Source of the DNA: Candidatus Latescibacterota bacterium
Lineage (GTDB): Bacteria > Latescibacterota > UBA2968 > GCA-2709665
NCBI GenBank assembly: GCA_963667175.2
Contig: CAXXXF010000003.1
Location: 256,001-320,000 of the forward strand
DNA: 64,000 nt
Direction of reading: 5' to 3'
Shown here: positions 58,530 to 63,485 of the stretch, piece after piece
How the letters are laid out: each line of letters begins with the position of its first letter
Numbering within the stretch: the stretch's first letter is position 1
Notes under the pieces: model-generated
Told to the model about the DNA's origin: nothing
What the model saw: the letters and a program-made list of their open reading frames with translations, nothing else
Databases searched by the model: none
Program-made: the position numbers and the translations under genes

Positions 58530-58967
58530 ACACCGGGTCAGTGTTCGGTCTCGGAAATAAGTTGCCTGAATTCGGCCGGAGAAAAGCAGCAATCAGCTAT
58601 CAGCACTCAGCCGTCAGCGAAAATCAAAAGCAAAAATCAGCTCACACAAAGACACGAAGACACGAAGAAAATCAAAACAGCTATCAGCGGTCAGCATTCG
58701 GCAATCAGCTTGAAGCAAGAACGAAAGTCAAAAACACAGAACGTCGAAATCCGCGGCGTCTGAGCGGCCTGCCTGCGCCGAAGCCTGCTCGGCAGGCAGG
58801 CGCGGTTCTTTTTGGTCCTTTTTCTTACGCGCTATAAGAAAAAGGACGAAGAAGAAAAAAGAAACGGGAGAGGTAAAGTTCGGGACCGCCCGGAACGCAG
58901 TTTCAGTGCGTGTTCTTCCGGCGACAGGCGACGACCTGTTGATGCAGTAAGTGAAGAGGGAAAAACC

Positions 58968-60857
58968 GTGGCATACGTCGACACGTTGTACGAAGAGTAC
59001 TATCTCGAATTCGCCTCCTATTCCATCAAGAACCGGGCAATTCCCAGTATTGACGACGGCTTCAAACCGGTCCAGCGGCGCATTCTGCATGCCCTCCATG
59101 AGATGGACGACGGCAAGTACCACAAGGTCGCCAACGTCGTGGGCCAGACCATGCGGTACCATCCCCACGGTGATCTCTCGATCTTCGGCGCCCTGGTGAA
59201 CCTGGCCAACAAGGAGCTGTTCATCGACAGGCAGGGCAACTTCGGCAACGTCTTCACCGGCGACGAGGCCTCCGCCGCCCGGTATATCGAATGCCGCCTC
59301 ACGCCGCTCGCACGCGAGGTTCTCTTCAACCCGGAGACAACCGAATTCGAGGATTCTTACGACGGCCGCAACCGGGAGCCGCTCGCTTTTCCCGCGAAGA
59401 TCCCCGTCCTGCTCGCCATAGGCTCGGAGGGCATCGCAGCCGGGATGACCACCCGGATTCTCCCGCACAACCTCGTCGAACTGCTCGAGGCGCAGATTGC
59501 CTGCCTTCAGGACAGACCCTTCCGGATTCACCCCGACTTTCTCACCGGCGGGCTGGCGGACGTCTCGCAATATGACGACGGCAACGGGAAGGTCCTGGCC
59601 CGCGCCAAACTGGACACCCGGGATCCGAAACGCATCGTCGTGCGGGAACTGCCCTACGGAACGACAACCGAAACCCTCATTGCCTCCATTGAAGACGCGG
59701 TCAAAAAAGGCAAACTGAAAATTTCCGGCATCAGCGACTATACGACCGATCAGGTGGAAATCGAGATTCAACTCGCCCGCGGCGTGCATACCAAAGATAC
59801 GATCCACGCACTGTACGCATTTACGGACTGTGAAACGTCGATCGCGGCGAATCTGCTGGTGATTCGGGACAACCGGCCGCAGATTACCACAGTGACCGAA
59901 GTGATCGAATACAACACGAGCCGCCTGGTCGACCTTCTCAAGGCCGAACTCAAACTCGAAGAACGCCGGCTTAAAGCGCGGCATCACGCAAAAACGCTCG
60001 AGCAGATCTTCATCGAAAACCGGATTTACAAGCGCATCGAAGACGAGACCACCGCCGAGGACGTCTACCGTGCCGTGTTCGACGGTCTGGAACCGTTCCG
60101 AGAGCACATCAGGGCGGAAGTATCGCGGGAGGACGTGGAGAACCTGCTCAAAATCCCGATCCGGCGGATCTCACTCTACGATATCAACAAGGCCCAGGAG
60201 GAGATGCAGGAAATCCGCGGACGCCTCAGGGAGGTCCGGGCGAACCTGCGCGGCATCCAGGCCTTCGCCATTGCGTTTCTCCAGGACGTCATCGAGAAAT
60301 ATCGCAACGATCACCCCCGAAGAACAGAGATTGCGAGCATCCAGAAAGTTGACGTCCGGGAGGCCGCGCAGCGCAATCTCAAGCTGCGCTACGACAAGAG
60401 CACCGGTTACCTTGGCCACGAGGTCAACGGCGCCGCCCTTTTCGACGTGTCCCCGTACGACCGTGTCCTGGTGATCCGAAAGTCCGGAACGTACTCCGTG
60501 GTGGACGCGCCCGAAAAGCTCTTCGTGGACAAAGGCATGCTTTTCTGCGGCTTCGTGGACGAAAGTCGCGTCTACAATATTCTCTACAAGGAAAACAGGA
60601 CCGGATATCTCTACGTCAAACGGTGCAAGATCGGCAAGTTCATCCTGAACCGGGGGTACGAACTGGCGCCCGAGGGTTGCCGGATCCTGAAACTCACGAC
60701 CAAAAGCGACCGTAAAATCCGGGTCCACTTCAAGCCCAAACCCCGCGTGAGGATCACCGAAGAGGATTTCGCAATAGGGGACTATCCCGTTCGCGGCAAC
60801 AAAGCCAGGGGCATTCGCCTGGCCGCCCGCGAAGTCCAATCCGTCAAGTTCATTTGA
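58968..60857 (+). CDS. parC: Type IIA topoisomerase A subunit (short ParC type)
   Basis: GTG start after GAGGG; RAIP..DDGFKPVQRRIL, YHPHGD, catalytic AARYIE; short CTD and no GyrA box seen. Confidence 0.9.
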   Translation: MAYVDTLYEEYYLEFASYSIKNRAIPSIDDGFKPVQRRILHALHEMDDGKYHKVANVVGQTMRYHPHGDLSIFGALVNLANKELFIDRQGNFGNVFTGDEASAARYIECRLTPLAREVLFNPETTEFEDSYDGRNREPLAFPAKIPVLLAIGSEGIAAGMTTRILPHNLVELLEAQIACLQDRPFRIHPDFLTGGLADVSQYDDGNGKVLARAKLDTRDPKRIVVRELPYGTTTETLIASIEDAVKKGKLKISGISDYTTDQVEIEIQLARGVHTKDTIHALYAFTDCETSIAANLLVIRDNRPQITTVTEVIEYNTSRLVDLLKAELKLEERRLKARHHAKTLEQIFIENRIYKRIEDETTAEDVYRAVFDGLEPFREHIRAEVSREDVENLLKIPIRRISLYDINKAQEEMQEIRGRLREVRANLRGIQAFAIAFLQDVIEKYRNDHPRRTEIASIQKVDVREAAQRNLKLRYDKSTGYLGHEVNGAALFDVSPYDRVLVIRKSGTYSVVDAPEKLFVDKGMLFCGFVDESRVYNILYKENRTGYLYVKRCKIGKFILNRGYELAPEGCRILKLTTKSDRKIRVHFKPKPRVRITEEDFAIGDYPVRGNKARGIRLAAREVQSVKFI

Positions 60858-60946
60858 TCCCGATCACGGGGTCAAATCGGGAAGTATCAAAGCGGCCGGA
60901 GGCGCATCCGTCAGCATCTTTCCGCGCCACGGAGAAAGAAGGCTGT

Positions 60947-61711
60947 ATGTCACCCAAGCCCCTTGCAGACCTTCTGGACCTGTCCGGACAGGTCGCAATC
61001 GTCACCGGCGCCAGCCGGGGCATCGGAAAGAGCATTGCCGAGGTCTTTCACCAGGCGGGCGCCGGGCTCATGCTGGTCGCGCGCAATGCCGGCCCTTTGC
61101 AGACGGTCGCCGATGCGCTATCCGGGCGGGGCGACGTGCTCGCGGCGCCGGCCGACGTTGCGGTCGAGGCGCAGGTCAACGCCTTCGTACAAAAGACTGT
61201 CGATGCCTTCGGGCGCGTTGATATCCTGGTCAATAACGCCGGCGTATCCAGCCCGGGGCCCTATACCGGCGTCGACCATGCCGAGTGGCAGCGGGTGATC
61301 GGCGCCAATCTCACCGGCGCGTACCTCTGCTGCCTGGCGGCGGCGCCCCACATGGAAGCACAGAAGAGCGGCCGGATCATCAACGTTTCCTCCATCAGCG
61401 GCCAGACCGGGGGCGTCGCGGGCGGGGTCCACTATGGAAGTTCGAAGGCCGGCATGCTGGGTATGACCAAAACCCTGTCGCGCGACCTGGCATCGAGCAA
61501 CGTCACCGTCAACGCCATTACCCCGGGGGTGATTGAAACCAGCATGCAAATCCCTCCCGAGACCCGCAGCCGAATCAACGAACTCATTCCGCTGGGGTAC
61601 GTCGGCCAACCCGAGGAAATTGCCTACGCCGCCCTCTTCCTGGCCTCGCGGATGGGCGCATACATCACCGGCGCCACGATCGACGTGAACGGCGGGATTT
61701 TGAAAAGATAA
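60947..61711 (+). CDS. Short-chain dehydrogenase/reductase (FabG-like)
   Basis: TGASRGIG, LVNNAG, YGSSK, PG.I.T. Confidence 0.93.
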   Translation: MSPKPLADLLDLSGQVAIVTGASRGIGKSIAEVFHQAGAGLMLVARNAGPLQTVADALSGRGDVLAAPADVAVEAQVNAFVQKTVDAFGRVDILVNNAGVSSPGPYTGVDHAEWQRVIGANLTGAYLCCLAAAPHMEAQKSGRIINVSSISGQTGGVAGGVHYGSSKAGMLGMTKTLSRDLASSNVTVNAITPGVIETSMQIPPETRSRINELIPLGYVGQPEEIAYAALFLASRMGAYITGATIDVNGGILKR

Positions 61712-61883
61712 AGGCAGCGGTCAGCGATCAGCATTCAGCTACAAACCAAAACCAATCCAGTTGACGGCAGCGCCGTGAAGTGGCAGGGCCAGAAGGACGC
61801 AGACCTCTCCCCCCGGCCTGCCTGCCGGCAGGCAGGCCCCCTCTCCCGGAGGGAAAGGGGGAGGAAGAACAAAGGAGAATGAT

Positions 61884-63074
61884 ATGACAGTTCGTAAGGA
61901 TGAATGGAAGCCAGGTCCTGAAACGATTGAATCGCTGTCCTCGCTGATCCGGTCGAAACCCGAGGAAGTGCGGTGGACCGAAATCGGATGGGAGATAGAT
62001 CTCTGGACGGCACGGCGTCGCGCGGCCGCGGTGAACAGACCGATGTTCATCTGGGCGATGAACGGCAACCCGCTCGGCTGCGTCTGAAACAACGGCATCG
62101 CGGGCCGTGAGTCCGTTTTCTCCCATCCCGACATCATCCGGATCCTCAACGATTCGTATGTTTCCGTCGCGGACAACTGCAGCTATACCCAGACGCAGAA
62201 AGACGCCAAGGGCGAATTTTTCCGCCTCGTGGCGGAACAGGGTCATTACGGCGGGCGCACCGAACCCACGGCCACCCGCCAGGGCCTGTACGCGTGTACC
62301 TCGGACGGCGAGTTGCTGGGGTCCATCAACACGCGGGATGCCGCCCCCCTCCTGGAACTGCTCGAGCAGAGCCTGGAGAGGTGGCGCAAGCGCCCGGCCT
62401 GGGGCGCGTCCGACGATATTCCCGAATCCTATCCCATCGATCCCGGACTCGGATGGTCCTATCCGGACAACGGCCTGGCGCTCAAAGTCACGGTCCGGGA
62501 CCTCCCGCGGAATTCCGATGGTCTGGACGCGCGGCACAACATCGACTTCGCATGGTTTACGGAAGAAGAGGTTCGGGCTCTGGTACCCGGGAACGCCCGG
62601 CCCGGGCAGACCTGGCGCGCGCCGGATTTCTTCACCAAACGCCTCGCCCTGCGCCATTTCATCGACACGGTCCGCGGCCAATCGCCGGGATGGCGGGAAG
62701 CCAACCTGAAGGTAGGAGAGTTCCGGATGACCGTCGAGTCCGCCGAAGCCGGCCTCATCCGGCTCCGCATGGAAGGACGCATCCACCTCGAAGCCGAACC
62801 CACGTATGAAACCAATCCCTTCAGCAAGCTTACGGTGGACAAGCCACGGGGTCTGAACCTGACCCTCTACGGCATTCTCGCGTTCGATTCCCGGCGGCGG
62901 ACGGTCGAATCCTTCGACGCCGTCGCGACGGGCGACCGCTGGGGATATACCACCTACAACGTGCGCTTCGACGATCCCGGCCCCGCGCCCATCGGTTTCG
63001 CCTTCGAGCGCGCGTCGGACGATCCCATCGAACGCACCCCTCCCGCCTCCATCGGGCGGAATTACTTCGCCTGA
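61884..63074 (+). CDS. Probable selenoprotein with thioredoxin-like N-terminal domain (C-x-U; TGA 62085-62087 read as Sec)
   Basis: AAGGAG RBS; ORFs 61884-62087 and 62229-63074 are in frame with no other stop; reads ...IWAMNGNPLGCV[U]NNGIAGRESVFSHPDIIRILNDSYVSV... Confidence 0.8.
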
Positions 63075-63105
63075 CGCGTCATCCTCAAAACACGTACAGC
63101 AAAAC

Positions 63106-63146
63106 ACGCCCCCGCAACGGATTGTCGACACGTTGCGGGGGCGTTT
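63106..63146 (+). terminator. Strong hairpin downstream of the selenoprotein gene
   Basis: 14-bp perfect stem ACGCCCCCGCAACG / CGTTGCGGGGGCGT followed by a short U-tract. Confidence 0.7.
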
Positions 63147-63485
63147 GTGAAGGTGGGGCCTGCCTGCGCCAAGCGGAGCGCGGCAGGCGTGCAAACGGAC
63201 CGGCCGCTTCCTTCGTTGCGGCTCACAAATAAAACACCTTTACAGGCCATGTTGTCACAGCATCGTCACGCATAGACGTGTATATTTGACTCGACGTATT
63301 TGAGCGAAATTGGTCGGAAATATCCGCAAGAACGCAGACGTCGGGAGGAGATGATTCTTCGGCTCACCGGACGTGGACGGAAGAACACTGCAATTCAATG
63401 GAAGGAATATCTGTTTTCATCCGGCTTAGCTATGCTTTGGACCGTGTATTTCTGACGAATTGAGGCGAAAACGGAGGAGAAAAAT

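Follow-up and report, generated by a model that had tools for sequence, protein, structure and literature searches.

According to the available portion of a 2026 review that presents its list as the most comprehensive, prokaryotes hold 119 selenoprotein families, each with a domain identifier, and most selenoproteins have a thioredoxin-like fold (PMC13188914). The families with a C-x-U motif (U, selenocysteine, Sec) given there are the UshA-like proteins (NF041198), form 3 of the rhodanese-like proteins (NF041203), the ferredoxin-thioredoxin reductase (NF041072) and the thioredoxin-like Sec.1 family (PF13192), and in the available part of the Global Ocean Sampling (GOS) survey the UshA-like family is the sole one with C-x-U (PMC2398784). 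Eukaryotic selenoprotein N (SELENON) is defined as a transmembrane protein of the endoplasmic reticulum (ER) that contains an EF-hand and the motif SCUG, and it is reported to be redox-active (PMC8584023). Here, we analyse a stretch of 64,000 nucleotides (the window) from a Candidatus Latescibacterota bacterium (contig CAXXXF010000003.1, positions 256,001 to 320,000 of the forward strand), in which the initial annotation had pointed to a hidden, SelN-like selenoprotein with an in-frame UGA in a C-x-U redox motif. We conclude, with a probability of about 0.88, that positions 61884-63074 of the window are one gene for a 396-residue selenoprotein, with the decoding and the chemistry proposed below. 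The locus is a true selenoprotein gene, and the large family to which it belongs is truncated systematically by annotation pipelines.

The gene (61884-63074, + strand) is a single frame of 396 sense codons that runs from an ATG at 61884 to a TGA stop at 63072-63074, and a Shine-Dalgarno-like AGGAG can be read from the sequence 6 nt upstream of the ATG (61873-61877, + strand). The sole internal in-frame stop is the TGA at 62085-62087, codon 68 of 396, which we read as Sec. Open reading frame (ORF) calling under the standard code cuts this frame into 61884-62087 (67 aa) and 62229-63074 (281 aa, GTG start). There is no ATG, GTG or TTG in the window sequence between the internal TGA and 62229, and no Shine-Dalgarno-like sequence 5' of that GTG. 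Direct reading of the sequence thus bears out what the initial annotation had said of the layout, namely a continuous 396-codon frame split by one TGA, the peptides quoted from either side of it both being in frame, and a downstream ORF devoid of an obvious ribosome-binding site.

The internal TGA is conserved among the relatives of this gene. A search of a collection of 5.8 billion proteins gave 206 relatives at E ≤ 1e-3, 120 of which were listed; 118 of these 120 cover at most 82% of the query and start no earlier than residue 72, where the first codon past the TGA that is usable as a start in those homologs' genomes lies. In GenBank, close relatives are entered as truncated 'hypothetical protein' records. 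When one genome per prokaryotic species was scanned and the best 80 of 177 relatives were retained, the aligned codon was TGA in 80 of 80 loci: a first, stricter motif pattern had matched 55 of them and a looser one matched 79, the last (L083) being read by eye. The phylum labels of these loci are Latescibacterota, Gemmatimonadota, Poribacteria, Chloroflexota, Planctomycetota and, once, Bacillota, that is, at least five phyla. In the window's own phylum the gene is present in 44 of 168 genomes, and there is exactly one TGA in each of the 47 matches that span the site (four further rows, outside these 47, are C-terminal fragments). A conserved TGA among homologs, which had been proposed as support for Sec, is thus what the loci show. 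In four genomes (G042, G038, G082 and G089) the gene has paralogs, making two or three copies with one TGA each, and two of the copies lie about 20 kb apart in both G082 and G089.

The TGA is embedded in a near-invariant motif, W-[AS]-M-N-G-x-P-L-G-C-[VT]-U-N-N-G-[IV]. Among 43 full-length sequences, W36, P53, W57, M59, N60, G61 and L64 are invariant upstream of the site, as are U68, N69, N70, G71 and R75 at or after it. Over the 16 codons 5' of the TGA, the entropy is 0.49, 0.24 and 1.08 bits at the first, second and third codon positions, respectively. The third position is the most variable, and this is the coding signature of a frame continuous with the downstream part.

A hairpin resembling the bacterial selenocysteine insertion sequence (bSECIS) follows the TGA. 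Its 6-bp stem pairs 62100-62105 with 62111-62116 around the loop CGUGA at 62106-62110 (62100-62116 overall, + strand; GCGGGC / CGTGA / GTCCGT as DNA), the loop begins 18 nt past the UGA, and the folding energy is -7.6 kcal/mol. The bacterial SECIS model quoted in the legend of Figure 2 of the 2026 review calls for a loop of 3-9 nt, a stem of 4-16 bp, a G in the first two loop positions, a spacing of 16-37 nt and an MFE (minimum free energy) of -7.5 or lower (PMC13188914), and the window hairpin agrees with it in every respect. For the comparative analysis, 66 bases from the TGA were taken in 79 distinct homologous sequences, which align without gaps. RNAalifold, unprompted, returned one helix, columns 16-21 with columns 27-32, around a 5-base loop, with double compensatory changes in 5 of the 6 pairs. 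With a 7-bp version of the stem, 85.4% of the cells in the 79 sequences are paired as compared to 73.2% in shuffles, and 70 double-sided changes occur as compared to 20.6 ± 3.4; each of these values was reached in 0 of 500 shuffles. Registers shifted by 1-3 columns, used as controls, gave 29-46% of paired cells and 10-19 double changes. The loop G (column 23) is invariant among the 79 sequences, and the residues at positions 73-74 and 77-78 covary so as to preserve the pairing. In a Planctomycetota subgroup (e.g. L066 and L083) the hairpin takes a slightly shifted register, which explains some of the unpaired cells. The hairpin that the initial annotation had placed at SECIS distance is therefore upheld by covariation and by RNAalifold. 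The pairing that it had offered as an alternative, AACGG...CCGTT, did not fare as well, with 8 double changes against 4.6 in shuffles, a number that 28 of 500 shuffles reach, and we rejected AACGG/CCGTT plus an inner stem as the decoding hairpin, as covariation does not support that pairing.

The genome from which the window comes, in an assembly that is 95% complete, has the machinery for Sec. We found selA (474.8 bits), selB (354.9 bits against a cut-off of 242) and tRNA-Sec (73.4 bits against a gathering threshold of 47) adjacent on one contig (C6), and selD (360 bits) on another (C13), so that the selA, selB, selC and selD genes looked for as a check on the selenoprotein proposal are all there. 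The first three span G000:C6:264737-268028 on the - strand, outside the window and apparently in one cluster. The selD gene, also outside the window (G000:C13:163286-164209, - strand), holds one in-frame TGA, and SelD itself thus appears to be a selenoprotein in this genome. ARAGORN detected 53 tRNAs in the genome, among which tRNA-SeC alone reads UGA and carries the only UCA anticodon. Across the phylum, selB scores above its cut-off in 43 of the 44 carriers of the gene, the exception being an 80%-complete assembly in 820 contigs. If decoding follows the pathway established in bacteria, the hairpin at 62100-62116 would be bound by SelB loaded with Sec-tRNA(Sec) as the ribosome meets the UGA at 62085-62087, and Sec would be inserted at position 68. 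We regard it as very likely that codon 68 encodes Sec.

The predicted structure spans the TGA. AlphaFold2, run on an alignment of the 43 full-length sequences, gave a model with a predicted local distance difference test score (pLDDT) of 90.7 and a predicted template modelling score (pTM) of 0.89, in which a thioredoxin-fold domain (residues 29-173; 61968-62402, + strand) precedes a C-terminal beta-rich domain of long antiparallel strands (residues 198-376; 62475-63011, + strand). The redox-centre codons TGC-GTC-TGA (62079-62087, + strand) encode C66, V67 and U68. In the model, strand 54-59 is followed by C66-V-U68, which caps helix 69-77, then by strand 93-98 and helix 108-124, by strands 134-138 and 144-148 and by helix 153-168; the redox motif thus stands at the N-terminus of helix 1 of the predicted thioredoxin fold, in agreement with the C-x-U redox centre first proposed for this TGA. 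Since strand 54-59 precedes the TGA and helix 69-77 follows it, the predicted fold needs both halves of the frame, and neither ORF alone would be able to form it.

C66 is at least 90% conserved and U68 invariant in the 43 full-length sequences, the core of the motif being G-C-[VT]-U-N-N-G. One locus, in a Poribacteria metagenome-assembled genome (L024), has Ala at the C66 position (G-A-V-U) and keeps the TGA; because of this replacement its Sec would have no nearby resolving Cys. Several polar residues, R75, E118, Q119, H121, Y122, R125, R132 and Q133, are invariant as well, which suggests that the protein has a defined pocket for its substrate and is not a protein-disulfide reductase of general use. 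An N-terminal hydrophobic leader is found in many of the Planctomycetota and Poribacteria Sec forms and is absent from the window protein and its relatives in Latescibacterota, as well as from the Chloroflexota forms. The window protein is probably cytoplasmic.

In searches for known relatives of the two domains, Foldseek matched 3f9u (E = 8e-5), in agreement with the closest solved folds named below, and the beta-rich C-terminal domain is without a clear solved relative. PDB searches by sequence and by profile returned only protein G B1 domains (E 0.04-0.9), which we took as noise, and no Pfam or NCBIfam model matched the window protein at E ≤ 1. Over the 43 members, Pfam gave marginal matches to PF13899 (Thioredoxin_7) in two, with a best E of 0.12, and to PF03190 (Thioredox_DsbH) in one (E = 0.0086). 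In the ESM Atlas, a database homolog (P0013) retrieved only unnamed 'hypothetical protein' clusters, mostly from Planctomycetota, and a query with residues 1-110 alone pointed weakly to one named family, Thioredox_DsbH (0.77).

The wider family includes relatives without Sec. A profile search over 1.84 billion cluster representatives, in which such relatives are counted, matched 3390 representatives at E ≤ 1e-3, a number that falls to 2007 at 1e-10 and to 548 at 1e-30. Among the best 150 of the 3390, 136 begin past the site and 14 span it; the latter have Cys in five cases (three of them C-x-C), Ala, Asp and Ser in two each, and Arg, Gly or Asn in the others. Cys homologs aligned with the Sec, a further sign of Sec that had been proposed for this gene, were thus found in 5 of the 14 distant relatives that span the site, and none was seen among close relatives. 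Sec/Cys pairs would accordingly exist only between subfamilies, the close relatives all appearing to be Sec forms. In four proteins (P0132, P0205, P0209 and P0213) an N-terminal Ser/Thr kinase domain and one hydrophobic, transmembrane segment come before the two-domain module, with D, A, S and C at the Sec position; P0132 also has Kelch repeats. The arrangement of these fusions would place the module outside the cytoplasm, and the module could thus also act as a sensor.

In the predicted structure, C66-V-U68 of an N-terminal Thioredoxin_7/DsbH/AGR-type thioredoxin fold lies where thioredoxins have CxxC. In the chemistry that we propose, the U68 selenolate would attack an oxidised substrate, e.g. 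a disulfide or other electrophilic centre, C66 would resolve the adduct by forming a selenenylsulfide, and the C66/U68 pair would then be recycled by a reductant of the cell. The invariant polar block of the thioredoxin domain and the C-terminal domain probably make the substrate site. A role as thiol/selenol oxidoreductase is, in our judgement, somewhat better than an even bet.

Several observations weigh against this reading of the locus. The hairpin of the single sequence is weak: by a simple rule, 74 of the 823 UGA triplets on the window + strand (9%) have an equal or better one. Moreover, shuffled sequences fold as well as the 75 nt that follow the TGA (z = +0.95), and we therefore dropped hairpin stability alone as evidence; the weight of the hairpin case lies in the comparative signal. 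The co-occurrence of selB with the gene is only mildly informative because 128 of the 168 genomes of the phylum have selB, and genomes that are related do not count as independent cases. The residue at the site is A, D, S, R, G or N in nine of the 14 distant relatives that span it, and therefore the module can exist without a redox residue at this position; together with L024, these relatives show that it tolerates the loss of one or both redox residues, and its function may not be purely catalytic. No neighbour gene recurs across phyla in the 30 loci examined that would indicate a pathway. Finally, selenium in the protein is inferred here from genes, and the redox mechanism by analogy with thioredoxin-fold enzymes.

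A relationship to SELENON is compatible with the selenoprotein reading. The family could be a bacterial member or direct relative of SELENON, a prokaryotic counterpart of its thioredoxin-like, Sec-bearing domain with the Sec at the same structural position; we hold this to be possible but doubtful. In both cases a selenoprotein carries its Sec near a Cys, that of the window family being at the head of the predicted first helix of the thioredoxin fold with the Cys shortly before, and many homologs are exported, a location topologically like the ER lumen. A local similarity to SELENON downstream of the Sec, as put forward in the initial annotation, may serve as a lead, not as a test. However, SELENON has adjacent Cys and Sec in its SCUG motif, an EF-hand and a membrane anchor, whereas the window family has C-x-U-N-N-G and no EF-hand, and the window copy lacks a hydrophobic segment. 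Indeed, SCUG is absent from all 43 sequences (G-C-[VT]-U-N-N-G, or G-A-V-U in L024), and no EF-hand was detected in the window protein at E ≤ 1, where it has no Pfam match, nor among the families matched by the 43 members at E ≤ 10. The extra domain sits C-terminal to the thioredoxin fold, the solved folds that come nearest are DsbD-like and DsbH-like domains of bacteria and not UAS, and decoding in the window family would use a coding-region hairpin instead of the SECIS of SELENON, which is in the 3' untranslated region.

No SELENON-like chain appeared in the PDB searches by sequence and profile. A profile of the first 235 residues run against longer proteins gave 7 matches at E ≤ 10, none of them named selenoprotein N, a weak result that does not speak against homology. 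We found no relevant report in the literature on prokaryotic SelN or on selenoproteins of Poribacteria, Latescibacter or Planctomycetes with CxU, and in the available portion of the 2026 review selenoprotein N is missing from the families shared with eukaryotes (PMC13188914). The proposal of a SelN-like selenoprotein thus stands as regards a hidden selenoprotein with a predicted thioredoxin fold, and falls short as regards the SelN hallmarks, SCUG and EF-hand, so that the link is not established. Were it true, SELENON, a human muscle-disease protein of poorly defined biochemistry, would gain abundant, soluble and tractable bacterial relatives, including natural Cys forms and kinase-linked sensor forms, for expression, assay and crystallisation.

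It is very improbable that the UGA is read as a standard amino acid, be it Trp, Cys or Arg through a near-cognate or suppressor tRNA, or that TGA means Trp or Gly in the code of this lineage. Two homologs of the public collection, P0056 and P0079, cross the site and are recorded with W there, as such a decoding would have it, and Trp in homologs had been named beforehand as a ground for giving up Sec. However, the loci nearest to them (L052, L057, L062 and L082) carry TGA and not TGG at that codon. Since these genomic loci of the clade have TGA, the W is most likely an annotation artefact of gene calling under a TGA=Trp code, one that could mislead Sec/Cys surveys. Furthermore, TGA is also the terminal stop of the window gene and of the gene in about half of the loci, the carriers come from five standard-code phyla, the only tRNA with a UCA anticodon is tRNA-SeC in a genome that has the full selA-selB-selC-selD set, and the conserved hairpin at SECIS distance would be left without a role.

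Less credible still is a split locus, in which a peptide of 67 aa and a downstream protein that has a start of its own would be separate genes or the pieces of one gene disrupted by a nonsense mutation. Standard gene callers yield exactly such a split, and codon 72 is ATG or GTG in many homologs, which makes a downstream start formally possible there, but a nonsense mutation is not expected to become fixed at the identical codon in all 80 loci from several phyla, codon 72 of the window gene is ATC and the first start (GTG 62229) comes 48 codons on, inside the thioredoxin fold and with no ribosome-binding site, the predicted fold requires strand 54-59 of the upstream part, and this part is under coding constraint in the same frame. 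We therefore retain a single selenoprotein gene, and the initial proposal that pipelines split it agrees with the 118 of 120 listed homologs that start just past the TGA, with the TGA found in each of the 80 loci, with the presence of Sec machinery and with a predicted fold that bridges the site.

As for the surroundings of the gene, a hairpin of 14 bp with an 11-nt loop, followed by UUUGUG, lies 32 nt past the stop (63106-63144, + strand). Its folding energy is -30.6 kcal/mol (z = -4.37, with 0 of 200 shuffles equally stable), and it is likely the transcription terminator of the selenoprotein gene; a consensus terminator scan missed it because of the 11-nt loop. Upstream, a gene like those for subunit A of topoisomerase IV/gyrase (58812-60857; PF00521, 357 bits) shares 4 bases with the beginning of a short-chain dehydrogenase (SDR) gene (60854-61711), which ends 173 bases 5' of the selenoprotein gene. 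Of the 30 loci examined, only three (the window, L005 and L009) have an SDR gene upstream.

Immediately 5' of the gene lies an intergenic stretch (61798-61863) that is palindromic and rich in GC. In a DNA run (X1), short contigs stack on it to a summed depth of 28.7 as compared to about 5 over the gene, and an RNA run (X20) has a value of 33.5 there. The pile-up of contigs suggests a repeated element. Two runs of one study, labelled as sponge metagenomes (X1 and X2), hold at least half of the words of positions 61700-63200 of the window, and other runs hold small shares; that study may be the one from which the window comes. Metatranscriptome contigs from three libraries, 90-95% alike, cross the TGA (X18, 61802-62511; X19, 62019-62194; X20, 61826-62152). 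Such contigs give weak support, as they are no proof of transcription, of its ends or of its level, may come from DNA contamination, and leave uncovered stretches without meaning.

The family to which this gene belongs comprises thousands of metagenome clusters that are recorded nearly everywhere as truncated 'hypothetical protein' entries without the active site. A family model with Sec at 68 would fix their annotation in Latescibacterota, Poribacteria, Chloroflexota and Planctomycetota. That all 80 close relatives have Sec and not Cys suggests that selenium matters for the chemistry, and C-x-U spacing is uncommon within a thioredoxin fold.

In terms of structure, the closest folds are those of the Thioredoxin_7/DsbD-gamma-like and Thioredox_DsbH (DUF255) domains, with 3f9u, 3ira, 7tkv and DsbH 2ju5 as solved examples at 11-19% identity; 3f9u is the C-terminal domain of an exported, cytochrome c biogenesis-related protein of Bacteroides fragilis. 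Compared to these domains, the window family has C-x-U (C-[VT]-U, with one residue between) in place of CxxC and a fused beta-rich domain of 200 residues, and no member reaches the Pfam thresholds. With the catalogued CxU families (NF041198, NF041203, NF041072 and PF13192) it shares the motif and a bacterial SECIS just past the UGA, but the window protein matches none of their models at E ≤ 1 and differs from them in size and in its two-domain architecture. Because no model matches, the family is absent from the 119-family list as available to us in the review (PMC13188914), and relatives are recorded as truncated hypotheticals, we regard it as uncatalogued in these sources; BSepDB and the supplements of recent prediction papers may list it. 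The thioredoxin-fold selenoproteins of bacteria (Sec-Trx, Prx-like, DsbA-like and GOS_C, among others) follow the same logic, with Sec in place of the attacking Cys and with Cys relatives. The window family differs from them in having CxU rather than UxxC or CxxU, in its extra conserved domain, and in that its Cys forms occur only in distant subfamilies. It is thus a new family of a well-known kind, and not a new kind of system.

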